Shown: one piece after another, positions 1 to 9,003 of the stretch
Position numbering within the stretch: position 1 is the first letter of the stretch
How the letters are laid out: every line of letters starts with the position of its first letter
Translations under genes and position numbers: made by a program
The notes under the pieces: generated by a model
Told to the model about the DNA's origin: nothing
The model's database searches: none
What the model saw: only the letters and a program-made list of their open reading frames with translations
Source: Escherichia coli
GTDB taxonomy: Bacteria; Pseudomonadota; Gammaproteobacteria; Enterobacterales; Enterobacteriaceae
Length of the DNA: 64,000 nucleotides
Assembly: GCF_044324875.1 (NCBI RefSeq)
Contig: NZ_CP172185.1
Direction: 5' to 3' (one strand)

Positions 1-187
1 TATTCATCACGAAAATGTGATCTGTGCCGAAAAATATCTATTAACCGCCCCGTTTTGTTTTATACATGTCCGGACTACGGACAGATTTTAGTATTGTTGT
101 GAAATTATTCTGCTTTATATTTACCCTCAGAGATGGCAACTGAAGCTCTTCCACATGGGGCTTCTTAATCTGTGATAAGGGTAAAAA

Positions 188-1741
188 ATGCAAATGATTA
201 CCTCGCGACAAAACAGATTATTACGATTCCTTTTACCACGAAGGGAATATACGACTATTGTTACGATTGCCGGCTATTTAAATGTTTCGGAAAAAACCAT
301 TCAACGTGATTTACGTTTACTTGAGCAATGGCTGGAACAATGGCGAATAACCGTTGAGAAGCGTGCTGGCGCAGGTGTGATGTTAGACTCGAAGAATATT
401 ACTGATTTGCTGCATCTTGATCATTTGTTGGGAGCAGAATGTGAAGAGATTGATGGTGTAATGAATAATGCCAGGCGCGTTAAAATAGCGTCGCAGTTAT
501 TAATTGAAACACCGAATGAAACGTCGATCAGTAAATTGTCAGAGCGCTATTTTATCAGTGGAGCCTCTATTGTTAATGACCTGAGAGTGATTGAGTCCTG
601 GCTTGCGCCGTTGGGGTTATCATTGATCCGCAGCCCAAGTGGTACGCATATTGAAGGTAGTGAAGGGCAAGTCCGACAGGCAATGGCATTACTGATTAAC
701 GGCATTATTAACCATAATGAGCCGCAAGGTGTCGTGTATTCACGTCTGGATCCCGGAAGTTATAAAGCATTAGTCCATTATTTTGGAGAAGAAGAGGTGT
801 TATTTGTCCAGTCATTGTTACTGGATATGGAAAATGAATTAAGTTGGTCTTTGGGAGAGCCTTATTACGTTAACATTTTTACTCACATCCTTATTATGAT
901 GTATCGCAACACGCACGGGAATGCGTTATCCAGAGAAGAAGATCAAACCAGGCAATATGATGAAAATATCTTTAATGTTGCCAGTCAGATGATTCATAAG
1001 ATAGAACAACGAATTGCACATACATTGCCCGATGATGAAGTCTGGTTTATTTATCAATATATCATTTCATCAGGTGTGGCGATTGATGGACAAAAAGATG
1101 TTAGCATTATTTCACATATGCAGGCCAGCAATGAAGCGCGTCTGATTACCTGGCGTTTAATTACGGTATTCAGTGACATCGTGGACTGCGATTTTAGTGA
1201 AGACAGCGCATTATATGATGGCTTGTTGGTTCATATTAAGCCGCTGATTAACCGACTAAATTATCGCATTCATATCCGTAATCCATTGCTGGAAGATATT
1301 AAAGCAGAATTAGCGGATGTCTGGCGGTTGACGCAATATGTGGTGAATCAGGTATTTAAAACCTGGGGTGAGAATGCAGTGAGCGAGGATGAAGTAGGTT
1401 ACCTGACCGTTCATTTTCAGGCTGCGATGGAGCGGCAAATTGCCCGTAAACGTGTATTACTGGTCTGTTCAACCGGAATCGGAACTTCGCATCTACTGAA
1501 AAGCCGTATTCTGCGAGCATTTCCTGAATGGACGATTGTTGATGTTATTTCAGCAGCGAATTTATCACAGGTTTTGCCTGACAATATCGAACTGATTATT
1601 TCGACCATTAATTTGCCTACAGTCACTATGCCGGTCGCTTATGTTACCGCTTTTTTTAATGATGCCGATATTAAGCGAGTCACTGAAATGGTGATTACGG
1701 GAAAATTACATCATGCGACATCTCGGGTCGTTGAAATTTAA
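188..1741 (+). CDS. PRD-containing transcriptional regulator of a PTS operon (BglG/MtlR/LicR-like; N-terminal HTH, PRD region, C-terminal EIIB-like domain)
   Basis: 517-aa ORF; N-terminal helix-turn-helix-like segment; Cys-containing EIIB-like motif LLVCSTGIGTSHLL near C-terminus; sits directly upstream of EIIA/B/C genes; ATG at 188 preceded by a G-rich RBS-like stretch. Confidence 0.65.
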   Translation: MQMITSRQNRLLRFLLPRREYTTIVTIAGYLNVSEKTIQRDLRLLEQWLEQWRITVEKRAGAGVMLDSKNITDLLHLDHLLGAECEEIDGVMNNARRVKIASQLLIETPNETSISKLSERYFISGASIVNDLRVIESWLAPLGLSLIRSPSGTHIEGSEGQVRQAMALLINGIINHNEPQGVVYSRLDPGSYKALVHYFGEEEVLFVQSLLLDMENELSWSLGEPYYVNIFTHILIMMYRNTHGNALSREEDQTRQYDENIFNVASQMIHKIEQRIAHTLPDDEVWFIYQYIISSGVAIDGQKDVSIISHMQASNEARLITWRLITVFSDIVDCDFSEDSALYDGLLVHIKPLINRLNYRIHIRNPLLEDIKAELADVWRLTQYVVNQVFKTWGENAVSEDEVGYLTVHFQAAMERQIARKRVLLVCSTGIGTSHLLKSRILRAFPEWTIVDVISAANLSQVLPDNIELIISTINLPTVTMPVAYVTAFFNDADIKRVTEMVITGKLHHATSRVVEI

Positions 1742-1767
1742 TGTCAGAATTTTATGAGGTATGACGA

Positions 1768-2238
1768 ATGGACATAACAAAAATCCTGAATACGAATCGC
1801 GTTATTTTAGATATGCAAGCGACGAATAAAGCGGAGGCGATTGAAGAATTAACTAATCTTCTCAAAAAAGATGGTGCGATCGATTGTCGGGAAACCTTTA
1901 TTAAAGATGTCTGGCAGCGCGAAGCGGAAGGCTCGACTGGTTTTGAAAATCATATTGCGATCCCGCATGGTAAATCTTCTGCGGTAATTAATACCACGCT
2001 GGCTATCGGGCGTACCCGGCAGGATATTCCCTGGGAAACACTGGATGGCAGTAGCGTACGCTGTATTATTTTATTTGCGGTACGTCTTGAAGATCAAAAT
2101 ACCACTCATATCCGTTTACTTTCCCAGGTCGCGGGCGCGCTTGCAGATGATGACATCATAGCGCAATTGCTGGTTGAGACGAGCCCGCAAAAAATCATTG
2201 ATCTCTTTAGTCAGTATGCACAATCCGATGTCTACTAA
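1768..2238 (+). CDS. PTS EIIA component (fructose/mannitol type)
   Basis: 156-aa ORF with HIAIPHG phospho-histidine-like motif typical of EIIA type 2; operon position. Confidence 0.7.
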   Translation: MDITKILNTNRVILDMQATNKAEAIEELTNLLKKDGAIDCRETFIKDVWQREAEGSTGFENHIAIPHGKSSAVINTTLAIGRTRQDIPWETLDGSSVRCIILFAVRLEDQNTTHIRLLSQVAGALADDDIIAQLLVETSPQKIIDLFSQYAQSDVY

Positions 2239-2255
2239 ATAACAGGGAGTATATC

Positions 2256-2570
2256 ATGAATATTGTCTGTGTTGCCGCCTGCACGGCGGGTATTGCTCAC
2301 ACCTATATTGCTCGTGAAAAGTTAATTAAAGGGGCAAAAGCACTGGGCCACACCATTAAAGTTGAAACCCAGGGAACCATTGGTACAGAAAACGAATTAC
2401 AGGCGGCAGAGATCTCTGCTGCTGACGTCGTGATTCTTGCTGTGGATGTGAAAATAAAAGGAGAAGAACGTTTTACCAATAAACGCATTGTGCGAGTAAA
2501 GACAGAGATCGTCATTAAATCGCCCGTTCAATTTCTTGAAAAGGTCGAAAAATCACTGGGAAATAAATGA
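2256..2570 (+). CDS. PTS EIIB component (fructose-like)
   Basis: 104-aa ORF, N-terminal Cys motif VCVAACTAGIAHT typical of fructose-type EIIB. Confidence 0.7.
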   Translation: MNIVCVAACTAGIAHTYIAREKLIKGAKALGHTIKVETQGTIGTENELQAAEISAADVVILAVDVKIKGEERFTNKRIVRVKTEIVIKSPVQFLEKVEKSLGNK

Positions 2571-2594
2571 TCCTTATACTGGAGGGATCTTAAT

Positions 2595-3686
2595 ATGAAA
2601 GAAAATGAAATTCCGGTTTCACAGGAAATTAAAAAACATTTATTAACCGGCATCTCGTGGATGATACCCCTTATTGTGGCCGCCGGGATATGTATTGCGT
2701 TGGGGCAAGTTCTTGGCGGTACAGATGTTGGTGAAAAAACAGGAACAATCCCGTGGATGCTTAATCAGATTGGCGGCTGGGGAATGGGGCTGATTGTGCC
2801 GCTGATTAGCGCGGCAATTGCCTATTCTATTGCCGATCGTCCCGGATTTGCCCCGGGCCTGATTGTCGGCTTTCTCTGTGGGCAAATCCATACCGGATTT
2901 ATTGGCGGTATGTTGGGTGGTTTCCTGGTGGGCTACACCATTTTGCTACTTAAACGCTATATTCGCCTGCCGCAGTCGATGCAAGGACTCATGCCAATCA
3001 TGGTGTTGCCGGTATTAAGCACCATTATCGGTGGGCTGTTAATGATGACGCTGATTGGTAAACCCATCGCCTGGTTACAAGAAGCACTGATTCATTTGCT
3101 CGAGTCGATGCAGGGCGGATCGCGCTTCCTGATGGGGGCCATACTTGGCGCGATGGCAACCTTCGATTTCGGTGGTCCGGTCAACAAAACCATGTCGCTG
3201 TTTTCCGATGGCTTGCTGGTCAGTGGCGTCTACGGACCAGAAGCCGTGAAATTTGTCGGCTCAATCATCCCTCCGTTTGGCATCACACTTTCGTTCTTAC
3301 TGACACGCCATAAATACACCCGTGCGGAGCGCGAGGCGCTGAAAGCCGCGTTTCCGATGGGGATCTGCATGATCACTGAAGGAGTCATTCCGATCGCCGC
3401 GCGTGACCTGTTGCGAGTAGTGGGATCTTGTGTGGTGGCATCGGCGGTCGCGGGCGGCTTAATCATGGTGTGGGGCGTGGAGAGTCCGGTTCCACATGGC
3501 GGCATGTTTGTTGTGCCTCTGTTCACCCATCCTCTGCTGTTTTGCCTGGCGCTGGGTATAGGCACGGTGATTTGTGGCGTGATGCTTTCACTCTGGAAGA
3601 AACCGGTAACGGAACGCGACGAAGAGTTTGACGAACTGAGCGATCAAAAGCTGAAAGATGAAGAGATCATTTTCACCCTCGAATAA
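2595..3686 (+). CDS. PTS EIIC permease (fructose-like family)
   Basis: 363-aa hydrophobic, Gly-rich multi-pass ORF immediately after EIIA/EIIB. Confidence 0.7.
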   Translation: MKENEIPVSQEIKKHLLTGISWMIPLIVAAGICIALGQVLGGTDVGEKTGTIPWMLNQIGGWGMGLIVPLISAAIAYSIADRPGFAPGLIVGFLCGQIHTGFIGGMLGGFLVGYTILLLKRYIRLPQSMQGLMPIMVLPVLSTIIGGLLMMTLIGKPIAWLQEALIHLLESMQGGSRFLMGAILGAMATFDFGGPVNKTMSLFSDGLLVSGVYGPEAVKFVGSIIPPFGITLSFLLTRHKYTRAEREALKAAFPMGICMITEGVIPIAARDLLRVVGSCVVASAVAGGLIMVWGVESPVPHGGMFVVPLFTHPLLFCLALGIGTVICGVMLSLWKKPVTERDEEFDELSDQKLKDEEIIFTLE

Positions 3687-3697
3687 CCGGAGGCCCT

Positions 3698-4549
3698 ATG
3701 TTTGCCGATATGAAAAGTATGGTGATGAAAGCCTGGCATGAACATTACGCCTTGCTGGCGATCAACTGTATGAATCTGGAAAGTGCTCGCGCAGCTATCC
3801 GCGTGGCGGAGAAGAATCGCGCTCCGATCATTCTCAATCTCTATCAGGGGCATCTGGCGCATTTTCCTGCACCCGTCGCGGCGGCAGTGGTTAAAACGCT
3901 CGCGGAATCTGCCTCAGTACCGGTCACTCTGGCGCTTGATCATGGCAAAAATCCGGACTGTATTCGTCAGGCGTTTCGTGCTGGTTTCAGCGGATTAATG
4001 ATTGATGCTTCTGCTTTTCCCTTGGAGGAAAACGTGCGCCAGACCAAGGCGGTGGTGGAACTCGCCGCCAGCGCGCAGCTCTGCGTTGAAGGCGAACTGG
4101 GCCATCTGGCAGATGCGCCGCGTTACGACCAGGCCGCCAATGCAGACATGATGACGCAACCCACTGATGTGGAAGCGTTTATCGCGCAGACAGGCATTGA
4201 TCTACTGGCCGTTTCGGTAGGCACGGCGCACGGCATGTACGCGCCTGGTGTTGTACCTGCTATTGATTTTCAGCGTCTGGCGGAGATTTTCCACTGCTCG
4301 AGCGTGCCTCTGGCATTACATGGTTGTAGCGGTACGCCGTTCGATCAGCTCCAGCTCTGTACGACTCTGGGGGTAGCAAAAATCAACGTGGGGGCGGCCA
4401 TTTTTGAACGGGGGAAATCCGCGCTCCTGCATACCCTCTGTCACGATATATCCATTGAACTGGTGGACGCGCTGAAAGCTATGGAACTGGCCTTCGAAGA
4501 AGCGATTACACCGTATTTACAGGCGAGCGGCTCTATCGGCAAAGCCTGA
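3698..4549 (+). CDS. class II ketose-bisphosphate aldolase paralog 1 (FbaA/GatY/KbaY family)
   Basis: 283 aa; motifs LALDHG, GTAHGMY, LALHGCSG matching the zinc-ligand histidines of class II aldolases. Confidence 0.65.
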   Translation: MFADMKSMVMKAWHEHYALLAINCMNLESARAAIRVAEKNRAPIILNLYQGHLAHFPAPVAAAVVKTLAESASVPVTLALDHGKNPDCIRQAFRAGFSGLMIDASAFPLEENVRQTKAVVELAASAQLCVEGELGHLADAPRYDQAANADMMTQPTDVEAFIAQTGIDLLAVSVGTAHGMYAPGVVPAIDFQRLAEIFHCSSVPLALHGCSGTPFDQLQLCTTLGVAKINVGAAIFERGKSALLHTLCHDISIELVDALKAMELAFEEAITPYLQASGSIGKA

Positions 4550-4629
4550 TTCATTTTCTGTCATGGCCTTTATGCCAGTGCAATAACGCACCGGCAGGGC
4601 GGACTACACGCTGAAACTGGAGATTTAAC

Positions 4630-5490
4630 ATGTTAGTTTCGATGAAAGAATTACTGCAACCTACCCGCCAGCACGGCTTTGCCATTGGCGCATTTAATGT
4701 GGCGGATAACTGTTTCCTTCGCGCAGTCGTGGATGAAGCAGAAGCGACAAATACTCCGGCGATTATTGCCATCCATCCCAGCGAACATGATTTTGTGGGC
4801 GATGCCTTTTTCGCTCACGTTCGCGAAATTACCCAGCGTAGTCCGGTCCCGTTTGTACTGCACCTCGATCATGGTGCCTCTGTAGAGCATGTTTTGCGTG
4901 CGATTCGCTGCGGATTTACCTCAGTAATGATCGACGGTTCGCTGCTGCCGTATGAAGAAAACGTGGCGCTGACCGCAGAAGTGGTTCGCCTCGCTCACGC
5001 GGTTGGAGTGTCGGTTGAGGGTGAACTGGGAACCATCGGACAAACAGGAACGTCGGTAGAAGGTGGTGTTTCACAAGTGACCTACACAGATCCGGCGCAG
5101 GCCGCCGATTTTATTGCTCGTACAGGTGCCGACACTCTGGCTGTGGCGATTGGTACAGCGCATGGCATCTATCCAAAAGGGATGCAGCCGAAGCTGCAAA
5201 TGGACATTTTGCGCGACATTGCCGGACGTATTGATATTCCGCTGGTGCTACACGGTGGTTCGGCAAACCCGGACGCGGAGATTGCTGAATCAGTTACGCT
5301 CGGCGTCGGCAAAATCAATATCTCCAGCGATATGAAATACGCCTATTTCCAGAAAGTGCGTGAAATTCTCGCTAAAGAGAGCTGGTGGGACCCGAACGTC
5401 ATCTATCCGGATGCGATTAACGCGGCGCGGGAAGTCATTCGCCACAAAATGAAACTGTTCGGTTCGCTCGGTAAAGCATCACTGTACTAA
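4630..5490 (+). CDS. class II ketose-bisphosphate aldolase paralog 2 (tagatose/fructose-bisphosphate aldolase-like)
   Basis: 286 aa; motifs GAFNV, LHLDHG, GTAHGIY, LVLHGGS typical of GatY/KbaY/FbaA family. Confidence 0.7.
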   Translation: MLVSMKELLQPTRQHGFAIGAFNVADNCFLRAVVDEAEATNTPAIIAIHPSEHDFVGDAFFAHVREITQRSPVPFVLHLDHGASVEHVLRAIRCGFTSVMIDGSLLPYEENVALTAEVVRLAHAVGVSVEGELGTIGQTGTSVEGGVSQVTYTDPAQAADFIARTGADTLAVAIGTAHGIYPKGMQPKLQMDILRDIAGRIDIPLVLHGGSANPDAEIAESVTLGVGKINISSDMKYAYFQKVREILAKESWWDPNVIYPDAINAAREVIRHKMKLFGSLGKASLY

Positions 5491-5537
5491 GCCAGAAGGG
5501 CGGGGTGACCCGCCTTTTACGCAACAAGGAACGAGAT

Positions 5538-6470
5538 ATGCACTATCTGGGGTTGGATATTGGTGGGACCAAAATCGCCGCCGTCGTCATGGATGCGCAT
5601 GGCTGGGAGATTCGCCGTTACCGCTGCCCGACGCAAAAGTCGACATATCAACAATTTGTCTCATGCGTTGTGGCGTTTATCGAGCAGATTAGGCGGGACG
5701 TTCAACGACCGATGCTGACAGGGATCGCCTTACCCGGCAGTATCTCGCCACTCACTGGCCTGATTAAAAACGCGAATATTCAGGTGATTAACGGTCATGC
5801 GTTACAGGCTGATTTGCAGCAATTGCTTGGGCAACCGGTGGTGATAGCCAATGATGGTAACTGTTTCGCGCTATCAGAAGCTTGCGACGGTGCCGGGCAA
5901 GATTATGACGTGGTATTTGGTATTACGCTTGGTACGGGCTGCGGCGGTGGCATTGCCATCAAGCAACGACCGTTTATAGGGGCCTGGGGAAATGCTGCCG
6001 AATGCGGTCATATCACGTTGCCAGGCTATACGGAGCAGGAAGATGGTCCATCAGTCAGTTGCTATTGCGGCAAACACAACTGCGTGGAGTCGTTTGTTTC
6101 CGGCAGCGGTTTTAGTGAACGCTATCAACAGATGACTGGTAACTTGCTCACTCCTGCGGCGATTGTCACCCTGGCACAACGTGGTGATGCTTGTGCCATG
6201 CAGCAGGTGGCACGTTTTCGCCAACAGCTTGCCCGCACGCTGGCAACCATCGTTAACGTTGTTGACCCTGGCGTGATTGTGATCGGCGGCGGGCTTTCGA
6301 ATGTGGAACTGCTTATCACCGCTCTGAACGCAGAAGTTGCTCCACTGGTTTTCACCGATCAATTCACCACTCCCATTGTAAAAGCACAGCACGGCGACAG
6401 TAGCGGAATGCGTGGCGCTGCCTGGCTTGCTATGCGCAACGGAGAAGCCAATGAAACGTTCACAAATTAA
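5538..6470 (+). CDS. ROK-family sugar kinase
   Basis: ORF track 5505-6470; likely ATG at 5538 (MHYLGLDIGGTK) preceded by AAGGA; LGLDIGGTK ATP-binding motif and CYCGKHNCVE zinc motif typical of ROK kinases. Confidence 0.7.
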   Translation: MHYLGLDIGGTKIAAVVMDAHGWEIRRYRCPTQKSTYQQFVSCVVAFIEQIRRDVQRPMLTGIALPGSISPLTGLIKNANIQVINGHALQADLQQLLGQPVVIANDGNCFALSEACDGAGQDYDVVFGITLGTGCGGGIAIKQRPFIGAWGNAAECGHITLPGYTEQEDGPSVSCYCGKHNCVESFVSGSGFSERYQQMTGNLLTPAAIVTLAQRGDACAMQQVARFRQQLARTLATIVNVVDPGVIVIGGGLSNVELLITALNAEVAPLVFTDQFTTPIVKAQHGDSSGMRGAAWLAMRNGEANETFTN

Positions 6471-7131
6471 TTATGTTATTGATAAAGCACATGCCATTGC
6501 GCAGACCTTCCGCGTTTGTTTGCCAGAGTTCGCCTATTTTACGGTGGATGACTGGCTGCAGCGGGAACGGGATAACTGGCAAGAAGTGGTCGACTTACAG
6601 CTCGGTTGGGATATCACCGATTTTGGTCGTGGTGATTTCAACCAAACGGGACTAACACTGCTAACGATGCGCAACGGCGCGCTGGGGGCGGCGGCATATC
6701 CAAAACCGTATGCTGAGAAAATGTTGCAGATCCAACAAGATCAGCAGACTCCCTGGCATTTTCACACCCACAAAATGGAAGATATCCTCAATCGGGGCGG
6801 TGGAGACTTATGCATGCAGTTGGCCTGGGCCAACGAAGCCAATCTCTGTGATGATCAGCGGGTTATTACCGTGAGTGTTGATGGTCAGCGGCGTGCCGTG
6901 AAACCTGGTGAAACGCTGGTGCTAAAGCCGGGGCAGGGCATTTGCCTGCCGCCGCGTCTGTATCATCGCTTCTGGGCGGAAAAAGCGTTTGTTCTCGGCT
7001 GGGAAATTTCGATGGTAAATGATGACCAACATGATAACCATTTTCTTGAGCCGGGAGGACGTTTTCCGGCGATAGAAGAAGATGAACCGGTGAAATGGTT
7101 ATTGTGTAGTGAGTATGCTGTTTTGCGGTAA
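6451..7131 (+). CDS. cupin-fold sugar isomerase (D-lyxose/D-mannose isomerase-like)
   Basis: ORF track 6412-7131; likely ATG at 6451 (MKRSQINY) preceded by GGAGA; HFH..H...E-type cupin metal motif (WHFHTHK, LYHRFWAE); overlaps kinase 3' end by 20 nt. Confidence 0.55.
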   Translation: MKRSQINYVIDKAHAIAQTFRVCLPEFAYFTVDDWLQRERDNWQEVVDLQLGWDITDFGRGDFNQTGLTLLTMRNGALGAAAYPKPYAEKMLQIQQDQQTPWHFHTHKMEDILNRGGGDLCMQLAWANEANLCDDQRVITVSVDGQRRAVKPGETLVLKPGQGICLPPRLYHRFWAEKAFVLGWEISMVNDDQHDNHFLEPGGRFPAIEEDEPVKWLLCSEYAVLR

Positions 7132-7133
7132 TA

Positions 7134-7170
7134 GCGGGGACGCTAACGTTGATATCCGTTAGCGCCCGCG
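7134..7170. terminator. palindromic hairpin between convergent cupin isomerase gene and yicH (putative bidirectional terminator)
   Basis: inverted repeat CGCTAACG / CGTTAGCG with flanking G/C-rich arms, 3 nt after the stop codon. Confidence 0.4.
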
Positions 7171-7173
7171 TAT

Positions 7174-8883
7174 TTACTGCACCGGCTCCGTCGATGTAAC
7201 TTCGCCACTGGAAACGACGCCTGCATTCATGGTTTGAGTCACTTGCTGCTTTGTGGCGTTCATGGCATGCAATTGCCCGCTAACCGTAGGTTTCAGCGGG
7301 ATATTGGCCTGAATATCGCCGCTGGCGGTAAGCTGAATATTGCCGTCGCCAGTCAACGGTAATTCAGGCCATCCCCACTGTTGCAAAATATTCACCGGCA
7401 CACCGCGTCCATTCAGGCTGATATGGGTCTGACGTTGTGGCGTTTGTGAAACACTGGCGGTGGCTTCCAGAATGCCTTTTTCAGTAAATGCACTCAGTTC
7501 GCTGATATTCACCGTGCTGCTGTTGGCGGTCAGCGCCAGCGATGGGCGACGAACATCAACACGATTGAATGTCGCGGCGGCGGCATTCAGATTCGCCGAA
7601 CCACTCCAGACGCCCCATTTATGATCGGTAACCAGCGTCAGGTTGGCACCGTAACCATCGAGCGCGGTGAGCTGCCACGGGAAGTCAGGGTCGATATCAA
7701 TGATCAGATTGCGGCTGGCGCTAAATCTCTTCAGTTGCAGGCTGTTTAACCAGCCGGGTGTCGTTTCCATCCACAACTGTTGCCAGTTTTTCGGCAAGGT
7801 ATATTCCAGCCCGGCAATTGCCGCATCATCAAGGATCAACGTTTTCCCGTCACGCAGCCAGTTCCCTGACGTTCTGACCATGCCCCCTTCCCAGCGGCTG
7901 GTGAACTGGCGCAGCGCTACGCCCTGCGGGGAAAATTCCGCGTTTATAATCGGGTCAAATAAATGCAGCGAACCATAAATGAACTCGCTGGCGTTCATCG
8001 ACAGTTTGCCTTCCTGTGTCTGCCAGTCATCTTTACTGAAGGTCATGTTGCGCAAGCTGAGATCGAGGTCGGTCACCGCCCAGTCCGGACCTTGCAGACG
8101 AGCGTCAATGACTTCCAGGCGACCAATCTGCAACGACGGGACAGAGCGTAATGGCGCAAAGAAATCGGTTAGCGATTTTTCGCTTTGTAGACGGATATCC
8201 GCCATGCGCAGGTTTTCCACTTGCCAGCTGCCGTCAGCGTTACGCTGCGCGTTTCCGGTTAATGTCCCGCGGGCGATGTCGGCACCCAGGTTAGTCAGCG
8301 TAACGCGATCGTTATCAATACTGCCTTCAATCAGTACATTGGTGGCAGGAACATCATTGAGCGAAAGCGATCCGGCACTAAACTGAATCTGCGCCTTCGT
8401 ACCCAGCACTTTACCGGCTTCTGGTGACCACGGAACCACGCCGCCATTTACCCGCTGCGCGCTCAGTTTCCATTCGCTATTCGGGCTATTAAACGCCATC
8501 TCACGCAGTTGCAGACGATCGGCTTTGAACGGTAGCGGCGCGGTCTGGTCGGTGAGATTCAGCGTCCCGTTTTCCAGCAGGATGGTATCGACATGGCGTG
8601 GTTCGGTCAGTTGCCGACTGCTTAGCGCAATGTCGACACTTTTTGCCACCAGGGTCGCGGGCTGGCCATCACGGCCAAACGTGACGTTCTCCAGCACGAT
8701 ATGAGATGGCGCGGAAAAACGGTGATCCATCGCCCCGAAGGCCAGATGATAGTCGCTATTCTCGGAAACCCATGCGCTGATATGTTCTGCTCCCCAGCGG
8801 GTTTGCAGAAGAAAATAGAGGCCAGCGATCACCACTAACAGAGCGATGAAAATGTAGAGAAGCAGCTTCCCAATAAATTTCAT
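7174..8883 (-). CDS. yicH: AsmA-family protein YicH
   Basis: ORF track 7174-8907; start placed at internal ATG giving MKFIGKLLLYIFIALLVV signal-anchor N-terminus; long ORF recognised as YicH. Confidence 0.8.
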   Translation of the reverse strand: MKFIGKLLLYIFIALLVVIAGLYFLLQTRWGAEHISAWVSENSDYHLAFGAMDHRFSAPSHIVLENVTFGRDGQPATLVAKSVDIALSSRQLTEPRHVDTILLENGTLNLTDQTAPLPFKADRLQLREMAFNSPNSEWKLSAQRVNGGVVPWSPEAGKVLGTKAQIQFSAGSLSLNDVPATNVLIEGSIDNDRVTLTNLGADIARGTLTGNAQRNADGSWQVENLRMADIRLQSEKSLTDFFAPLRSVPSLQIGRLEVIDARLQGPDWAVTDLDLSLRNMTFSKDDWQTQEGKLSMNASEFIYGSLHLFDPIINAEFSPQGVALRQFTSRWEGGMVRTSGNWLRDGKTLILDDAAIAGLEYTLPKNWQQLWMETTPGWLNSLQLKRFSASRNLIIDIDPDFPWQLTALDGYGANLTLVTDHKWGVWSGSANLNAAAATFNRVDVRRPSLALTANSSTVNISELSAFTEKGILEATASVSQTPQRQTHISLNGRGVPVNILQQWGWPELPLTGDGNIQLTASGDIQANIPLKPTVSGQLHAMNATKQQVTQTMNAGVVSSGEVTSTEPVQ

Positions 8884-9003
8884 GGTCTTCCATCCCGTGA
8901 AATGCACATAAGGGAGTTATGCACGATTTACGCGCAATCCTCAAGGCGGGAATGGTGAAAGAGGTGAGACTGCGGCGGTAATTATCTTACCGCCGCCAGT
9001 GAA

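Follow-up and report, generated by a model that had tools for sequence, protein, structure and literature searches.

The 64,000-nucleotide stretch of Escherichia coli DNA analyzed here (contig NZ_CP172185.1 of assembly GCF_044324875.1), referred to below as the window, carries between positions 188 and 7131 a set of genes for a sugar phosphotransferase system (PTS), and the question it raises is which pathway these genes form and what kind of sugar phosphate they handle. An initial annotation made from the DNA letters had described an accessory PTS cluster and the most plausible place in the window for uncharacterized biology. Eight intact genes on the plus strand, separated by gaps of 11-80 bp with the last two overlapping by 20 nt, bore out its count, direction and coordinates at the level of open reading frames (ORFs). 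Searches against NCBIfam, Pfam and the PDB agreed with every gene identity it had proposed, namely a PRD/EIIB regulator (here FrzR), the subunits EIIA, EIIB and EIIC, two class II aldolases (Ald1 and Ald2), a ROK-family kinase and a cupin protein. Each gene is as long as its RefSeq counterpart in UTI89 and ETEC1738 and hence not truncated. UTI89 and ETEC1738, the latter being the closest genome, both show the order selC, yicJ, yicI, the cluster, yicH, xanP, gltS and recG, and in the window the cluster is followed by the convergent yicH (7174-8907, minus strand) and then by xanP, gltS and recG. A 2026 paper on the BEN2908 genome lists a region between yicH and yicI, GR27 with 7,227 bp, as the "frz operon", with reference to Rouquet et al. 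2009 (J Bacteriol 191:4427), and reports it as missing from MG1655 and as common to UTI89, RS218, CFT073 and others (PMC12928451). Both 20-mers of the frz PCR primer pair printed elsewhere with a stated product of 843 bp (PMC6238794) matched the window with 0 mismatches, at 593-612 on the plus and 1416-1435 on the minus strand; these sites fall inside the regulator gene (188-1741) and delimit an amplicon of exactly 843 bp. Since position and size agree with GR27 and the primers match exactly with the published amplicon length, the cluster is the already named frz operon of extraintestinal pathogenic E. coli (ExPEC), intact and at its usual site between yicI and yicH. The abstract of the original description in the avian ExPEC strain BEN2908 reportedly gives the same eight functions in the same order; its gene list is said to comprise three fructose-subfamily PTS subunits, a Mga-family PTS activator and two type II ketose-1,6-bisphosphate aldolases, together with a ROK sugar kinase and a cupin protein.

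The expectation of uncharacterized biology was not upheld, the cluster being a named and studied operon (GR27 in PMC12928451; primers in PMC6238794). The initial annotation had staked its claim on two points, that no substrate was defined and that K-12-like genomes lack the cluster; no defined substrate was indeed found and the cluster is absent from those genomes, yet the operon was already known. Its reported effects concern fitness during the late stationary phase, when oxygen is restricted, in serum and in the gut (PMC8777976, PMC6238794, PMC6727828) as well as a bias of the type 1 fimbriae switch toward ON (PMC8777976, PMC6727828, PMC6238794), and it is associated with virulent ExPEC strains (PMC12928451). 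The operon routinely serves as an APEC (avian pathogenic E. coli) and ExPEC marker, and re-finding such a recognized fitness and virulence marker adds nothing alone. What is new here beyond the published frz are a kinase-free core in about 70 species, the synteny of the cluster across several enterobacterial genera, a pair of aldolases without the arginine of the bisphosphate enzymes, and the repeated recruitment of isomerase and kinase genes. With the substrate apparently still unassigned 17 years after the operon was described, these four observations narrow the biochemical search. Very likely, the best overall explanation of the locus is an intact frz operon combined, taken jointly, with a mechanism in which a regulated PTS would supply a ketose 1-phosphate to the aldolases. 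The arguments for this explanation, and the rival explanations that bear on its individual parts, are given below (coordinates in Table 1).

The PTS proteins were assigned to the fructose family. All three subunits scored above the cut-offs of the corresponding family models (Table 1), and in the translations EIIA carries the phosphorylatable His67 in AIPHG and EIIB the active-site Cys9 in AACTAGIAHT, so that domains, His and Cys are those of a Fru-type Enzyme II (TC 4.A.2). A fructose-specific assignment was not obtained, with the equivalog models FruA, FrvA/B, FrwC and MngA of NCBIfam all staying under their cut-offs for the Frz PTS proteins. The substrate could thus not be read from the equivalog scores, as the initial annotation had anticipated, and the accessible literature on the operon names none, fructose included. 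The comparison it had suggested with characterized PTS families and with the D-lyxose isomerase of E. coli O157:H7 returned the fructose family for the former and 49% identity for the latter.

To define which genes belong to the functional unit, one genome per species was scanned with an alignment of Ald1 orthologues, yielding 71 loci, and all eight Frz proteins were compared with this set by tblastn. A six-gene core consisting of regulator, EIIA, EIIB, EIIC, Ald1 and Ald2 was present in this fixed order in every complete locus, spanning about 70 species of three phyla. The hosts are Enterobacterales (including Pantoea, Erwinia, Pectobacterium and Brenneria), Firmicutes (Enterococcus, Pediococcus, Lactobacillus and Marinilactibacillus) and Sebaldella, and no description of the core in other organisms was found in the accessible literature. 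The remaining two genes followed a different distribution. Kinase and cupin genes were both present in Escherichia, Klebsiella, most Kosakonia, Phytobacter, Buttiauxella and a few Citrobacter, the cupin gene without the kinase gene in most Citrobacter, Superficieibacter and Izhakiella, and the kinase gene without the cupin gene in Mangrovibacter and several Brenneria loci, while tblastn detected orthologues of neither in the loci of Pantoea, Erwinia, Pectobacterium, the Firmicutes and Sebaldella. Closer examination of the region directly after Ald2 revealed a short cupin (160-178 aa, 24% identity to the E. coli protein) in Marinilactibacillus and Sebaldella, which had no match in NCBIfam and was assigned to Lyx_isomer by Pfam, and a ScrK-type ROK fructokinase in one Lactobacillus and one Enterococcus species. 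Judged by these sequence relationships, isomerase and kinase functions joined the core more than once, as non-orthologous forms, and this repeated recruitment is an argument that the two functions are genuinely tied to a free sugar of mannose/fructose or lyxose/xylulose type.

Conservation within the core was uneven. Ald2, EIIB and EIIC were far better conserved than Ald1 and the regulator, as illustrated by Enterococcus durans with 62% identity for Ald2 and 38% for Ald1. EIIB was 57-62% identical in Enterococcus species and 80% identical in Sebaldella; the 79-80% identity of both EIIB and EIIC of Sebaldella to the E. coli versions suggests a fairly recent inter-phylum transfer.

Three individual loci showed additional features. 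In Klebsiella aerogenes the frz cupin gene and yicH are set apart by an additional module (L003:13503-17671, with like spacing in loci L015 and L024) that encodes a regulator of the RpiR type, a GH4 6-phospho-glycosidase and an EIICB of the glucose family; the module is similar to the agl system, which handles sucrose isomers and yields free fructose. A Brenneria assembly (Logan SRR9097969, L005:1-20852) carries the frz core and a ROK kinase gene inserted in the middle of a nitrogen-fixation (nif) cluster. In Pediococcus acidilactici, homologues of YicI (51%) and YicJ (35%) are encoded 5-8 kb downstream of the core (L073:16677-18956 and around 19221), echoing the enterobacterial yicJI-frz adjacency; with unrelated genes between, this may be a coincidence.

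The aldolases provided the most specific clue to the chemistry. Ald1 and Ald2 from nine taxa were aligned with GatY, KbaY, YdjI and FbaA of E. coli, and the literature numbering of FbaA mapped exactly (Asp109, His110, Glu174, Glu182, His226, His264, Asn286, Asp288 and Arg331), with roles for the three Zn-binding histidines, Glu182 and Asp109 taken from PMC11194214. Both paralogues keep the equivalents of Asp109, His110, Glu174, His226, His264 and Asn286 in all loci and look like functional metal enzymes. Arg331 of FbaA is the Arg of the DPR motif and corresponds to Arg257 of KbaY; an Arg occupies this position in FbaA, GatY and KbaY as well as in five solved fructose 1,6-bisphosphate (FBP) aldolases in the PDB alignments. 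Qamar et al. 1996 and Hall et al. 2002 reportedly identify this residue as the 6-phosphate ligand. Ald2 has an Asn (DPN) in its place, a best-hit tally over all collected loci, a few cross-hits included, giving DPN 69 times and Arg never, and Ald1 has a variable small residue (V, A, S or P). YdjI, which is annotated as a ketose-monophosphate aldolase, likewise lacks an equivalent of Arg331. For the loop residue Glu182, Ald1 shows no conserved counterpart, and the Glu of the Ald2 sequence VEGG lies a few positions further downstream; the alignment of this loop is uncertain. The nearest PDB entries of Ald1 were AgaY, 7NCC and YdjI at about 140 bits. Among the NCBIfam models Ald1 remained under all FBP- or tagatose 1,6-bisphosphate (TBP)-aldolase equivalogs, and Ald2 passed solely NF006042 and the generic TIGR00167.

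With no kinase gene in the core and no 6-phosphate Arg in either aldolase, the sequences suggest that the pair acts on a ketose 1-phosphate and not on a 1,6-bisphosphate. EIIA, EIIB and EIIC would import and phosphorylate a sugar, the product of the PTS would be a ketose 1-phosphate, and Ald1/Ald2, with their catalytic residues kept, would cleave it directly into dihydroxyacetone phosphate and an unphosphorylated aldehyde, a second phosphorylation being dispensable. For the pairing, a heteromer, two stereospecificities or the combination of an epimerase and an aldolase are possible reasons, the last of these being considered because Ald1 has no conserved loop Glu as proton-transfer residue; Ald1 might, judged by this residue, act as a partner subunit or 4-epimerase rather than as a releasing aldolase.

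The PTS D-tagatose pathway of Bacillus licheniformis and Klebsiella oxytoca runs via a 1,6-bisphosphate, and a corresponding route can be formulated for Frz, in which the PTS product, a ketose 1-phosphate, receives a 6-phosphate from the ROK kinase before the aldolases split the bisphosphate. The general logic of PTS, kinase and class II aldolase would fit such a route, as would the similarity of the aldolases to GatY and KbaY. Nevertheless we consider it very unlikely, for most clusters, including those of Pantoea, Erwinia, Pectobacterium, most Citrobacter and most Firmicutes, have no kinase gene, so that the kinase does not represent an obligatory step, and the 6-phosphate Arg is absent. ROK kinases are also not known to phosphorylate sugar phosphates.

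Kinase and cupin were examined as possible pointers to the sugar. The kinase is closest to the manno(fructo)kinase Mak and to NagK (NF007108 at 316.7 bits, below the cut-off of 443; PDB NagK at 1e-53) and carries the motifs LGLDIGGTK for ATP and CYCGKHNC, of the CxCGxxxC type, for zinc. The cupin, a member of Lyx_isomer PF07385, is 49% identical over 224 residues to the D-lyxose isomerase Z5688 of O157:H7 (3KMH/3MPB; E = 6e-65), and its metal motif HxH...E...H is conserved (HFH, E and YH aligned to 3KMH). The two proteins belong to the same cupin family and have the same length and metal motif, but the Frz cupin is a paralogue and not an orthologue of Z5688, because its NF051472 score of 270.8 bits lies under the equivalog cut-off of 350. 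Z5688 itself presumably lies at another chromosomal locus. Two gene starts were corrected: the ROK gene most likely starts with the ATG at 5538 and the cupin gene with the ATG at 6451, the positions from which the family matches run and which RefSeq uses in near-identical genomes. Both proteins would constitute an optional side branch, in which a free aldose of mannose or lyxose configuration would be isomerized to a ketose and then phosphorylated.

All proteins of the operon belong to fructose- or mannose-related families, the kinase being nearest to the Mak fructokinase with ScrK-type fructokinases as neighbors in the Firmicutes and the cupin family isomerizing mannose to fructose, and this could be taken to mean that frz provides a redundant route for the use of these two hexoses. 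The PTS would then form fructose 1-phosphate, FruK would convert it to FBP, the frz enzymes would serve as extra FBP aldolases, and cupin and kinase would lead from mannose to fructose 6-phosphate. However, the Arg331 equivalent present in every FBP/TBP aldolase compared is missing from Ald1 and Ald2, neither protein reaches the cut-off of an FBP-aldolase equivalog, the strict cross-phylum keeping of a divergent aldolase pair would be hard to explain for a sugar that is already used, and the accessible secondary literature names neither fructose nor any other sugar. We therefore regard redundant use of fructose and mannose as unlikely.

Several points weigh against direct cleavage of a ketose 1-phosphate as well. 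The enzyme functions are read from sequence, with no substrate named in the accessible literature, and the role of Arg331 as the 6-phosphate ligand is backed here only by the pattern of conservation. Loss of this Arg is no proof of specificity for monophosphates, since other residues could hold a bisphosphate, and a housekeeping 1-phosphofructokinase could supply one. The mechanism leaves the constant pairing of two aldolases unexplained, as well as the origin of the free aldose on which cupin and kinase would act, given that the PTS delivers a phosphorylated sugar. As a more far-reaching and only tentative proposal, rather doubtful as a whole, the core could represent an undescribed kinase-free PTS route with an obligatory Arg-less aldolase pair for a sugar new to PTS, shared by enterobacteria, lactic acid bacteria and Fusobacteria, to which isomerase and fructokinase were recruited repeatedly.

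Table 1. Positions in the window of the frz genes and of the regulatory and terminator elements adjoining them
Feature	Position	Strand	Remarks
frz upstream regulatory region (partial)	1..187	+	left end of unit about 84 bp ahead of window position 1
frzR, PRD-containing DNA-binding transcriptional activator (predicted)	188..1741	+	Pfam domains
Fructose-family PTS EIIA, 156 aa	1768..2238	+	TIGR00848 126.9 bits (cut-off 103.5)
Fructose-family PTS EIIB, 104 aa	2256..2570	+	TIGR00829 99.4 bits (cut-off 76.85)
Fructose-family PTS EIIC membrane permease, 363 aa, fourth gene	2595..3686	+	TIGR01427 311.7 bits (cut-off 157.55)
Ald1, divergent class II (PF01116) aldolase paralogue	3698..4549	+	under every NCBIfam cut-off
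Ald2, class II aldolase paralogue, unnamed subfamily NF006042/PRK08185	4630..5490	+	NF006042 525.9 bits (cut-off 405)
ROK-family sugar kinase	5538..6470	+	alternative GTG start 5505
D-lyxose/D-mannose-isomerase-family cupin, 226 aa	6451..7131	+	longer ORF start 6412
Strong hairpin, likely bidirectional terminator	7134..7169	both strands	in the 42-bp frz-yicH gap

The regulator bears on how the operon would be switched on. Pfam identified in FrzR the domains HTH_11, Mga HTH, PRD1 and PRD2 followed by an EIIB-like domain (residues 422-498), directly past which the protein of 517 residues ends; there was no Pfam match to a C-terminal EIIA(Mtl/Fru)-like domain, and a CAT RNA-binding domain was not found in this search either. 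All NCBIfam matches remained below cut-off, those of the GlcT and LicT models, which cover the PRD part alone, far below. His233 in PRD1, His349 in PRD2 and Cys427, which sits in the CxxGxGxS loop of the EIIB-like domain, were invariant in 11 sequences from three phyla, those of E. coli, Enterococcus and Sebaldella included. FrzR has a DNA-binding HTH/Mga region in place of a CAT domain, which makes its RefSeq name, "BglG family transcription antiterminator", misleading, and the BglG-type antiterminator that the name implies was ruled out by this N-terminus. No Rfam element was found in window positions 1-7400, and hence no riboswitch or leader RNA of a described family. A homologue of 654 aa, about 135 aa longer than enterobacterial FrzR, is encoded in a metagenome-assembled genome of Sebaldella (L076:6065-8029) and may retain the EIIA-like C-terminal domain that is absent from E. 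coli FrzR.

In the model established for MtlR, ManR and LicR, HPr activates the regulator via a PRD histidine, and the idle cognate Enzyme II inactivates it via the cysteine of the EIIB-like domain. From its domains and invariant residues, FrzR would be a DNA-binding PRD activator of this kind, which HPr would turn on by way of phosphorylation at a PRD histidine and which phosphorylation of Cys427 would keep off while the Frz transporter is idle. Under such joint control by HPr and the state of the transporter, induction would require both transport of the substrate and the absence of better sugars, and would occur solely when the two coincide. The effects on fitness and type 1 fimbriae would follow either from metabolism or from an altered state of PTS phosphorylation.

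If the second possibility were the principal one, frz would mainly be a sensing device whose transport activity shifts the phosphorylation of the PTS and FrzR and thereby gene expression, including the fim switch, with a minor gain of carbon. The published phenotypes would fit such a device in so far as they concern fitness under stress, adhesion and fimS orientation and not growth on a named sugar (PMC8777976, PMC6727828), and the PTS-regulated sites of FrzR are conserved. Nonetheless, a primarily sensory role appears improbable in view of the intact enzymes with catalytic residues kept in about 70 species of three phyla, mostly non-pathogens, which is the signature of a working catabolic pathway. 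The abstract of the original description is also said to state that the phenotypes depended on the metabolic enzymes and on the activator alike.

The genomic distribution of the operon was analyzed with respect to its origin. In a megablast search with window positions 1-7200, 1,603 of the 5,426 complete E. coli genomes contained the full cluster, UTI89, Nissle 1917 and O25b:H4-ST131 among them. Two alleles were apparent: 262 genomes were at least 99% identical to the window, and about 1,340, among them UTI89, Nissle 1917 and ST131, were near 98%. The window carries the minor allele group, its proteins are 96-100% identical to those of UTI89, and no functional difference was evident. K-12-type genomes lack the cluster and have in its place a yicI-yicH gap of 52 bp with one hairpin, in line with the strain-variable character and the absence from K-12 that the initial annotation had proposed.

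At the left border, homology to frz-negative genomes stops 23 bp past the yicI stop codon, just after the yicI terminator hairpin, so that the unit reaches about 270 bp upstream of the first gene and further than initially annotated. The hairpin at 7134-7169, with -24.5 and -23.4 kcal/mol on the two strands and z-scores of -4.1 and -5.8, likely acts as a bidirectional terminator and forms the unit's right-hand border; a second hairpin at 67-83 was weak and not significant. A consensus scan for promoters and terminators returned fewer sites than shuffled controls, with no convincing sigma-70 match upstream of position 188. Neither flanking direct or inverted repeats (repeat search) nor an integrase or insertion sequence (IS) were detected at the borders, and an interpretation as a mobile element was rejected on these grounds. 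As separate observations, strain E. coli N54 (H31, NZ_CM165885.1) has an IS1A inserted between yicI and frzR that splits the upstream region of the operon, and the neighboring yicH ORF (7174-8907) starts from GTG and would encode 577 aa, compared with the 569 aa given by RefSeq in the closest genomes; the longer start is probably not used.

The complete arrangement yicJI-[frz]-yicH was also found in a cryptic Escherichia clade, many Citrobacter, Klebsiella aerogenes, K. grimontii, K. michiganensis, Superficieibacter and Phytobacter ursingii, and partial synteny in Kosakonia and a second Phytobacter (yicH side) and in Mangrovibacter (yicJI side). Within the operon, G+C content is 41-44% (38-42% at third codon positions) in the genes for the regulator, EIIA and EIIB versus 50-55% in those for EIIC, the aldolases, the kinase and the cupin, with 55% in the flanks; this step is common to Klebsiella, Citrobacter and Pectobacterium and therefore old, and was not seen in Pantoea or Enterococcus. 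In the frz-negative E. coli HS-02 (NZ_CP172818.1; L081:4188-4453), a frameshifted 266-bp fragment of the 5' end of frzR abuts yicH and is the footprint of an operon deletion.

Even though frz is associated with virulence in ExPEC, its classification as a pathogenicity islet recently acquired by virulent E. coli lineages is not probable. Such an acquisition would account for the presence in about 30% of the complete genomes, for the reported association itself, for the lower G+C of the regulator, EIIA and EIIB genes (0.41-0.44) and for a core that clearly moved between phyla, as the Sebaldella EIIB and EIIC (79-80%) indicate. It is contradicted by the shared location between yicJI and yicH in the cryptic Escherichia clade, Citrobacter, Klebsiella, Superficieibacter and Phytobacter, by the lack of an integrase, IS or flanking repeats, by the G+C step common to Klebsiella, Citrobacter and Pectobacterium, and by the HS-02 remnant, which shows loss by deletion. 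Because of the synteny across genera, the old G+C step and this remnant, frz is most likely, as far as sequence comparison can tell, an ancestral enterobacterial locus that K-12 lost by deletion rather than one that others gained. The term accessory thus applies within E. coli but fits less well beyond it, where the operon is syntenic in Citrobacter, Klebsiella, Kosakonia and others and ancestry followed by loss is the better description. Together, core conservation and synteny speak in favor of an old catabolic frz module, lost by some E. coli lineages, and against a virulence gene acquired by pathogens.

Comparison with known systems places the individual parts of the proposed mechanism. Like the activators MtlR, LicR and ManR, FrzR has HTH and Mga domains at its N-terminus, a conserved His in each of its two PRDs and a conserved Cys in an EIIB(Gat)-like domain; the enterobacterial protein differs from them in lacking the EIIA(Mtl)-like C-terminal domain. 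The gat and aga systems (GatYZ, KbaYZ) and the D-tagatose PTS pathway share with Frz the combination of a PTS with class II aldolases of PF01116 and the presence of two aldolase-related genes together. In contrast to Frz, they use a PfkB kinase or a dehydrogenase to arrive at tagatose 1,6-bisphosphate, and the aldolase partner in gat and aga, GatZ or KbaZ, belongs to another family, whereas the Frz partner is a second PF01116 paralogue. GatY and KbaY keep Arg257, which both Frz paralogues lack, just as the Frz core lacks a kinase. YdjI of E. coli K-12, an aldolase for L-glycero-L-galacto-octuluronate-1-phosphate, resembles the Frz pair in belonging to PF01116, in the absence of the Arg331/Arg257 equivalent and in sharing with Ald1 the ELGH...Y loop pattern, and it acts on a ketose monophosphate. 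It differs from the pair in overall sequence, scoring about 138-171 bits against Ald1 and Ald2, and its gene belongs to a cluster without a PTS that also encodes dehydrogenases and a kinase of the PfkB type.

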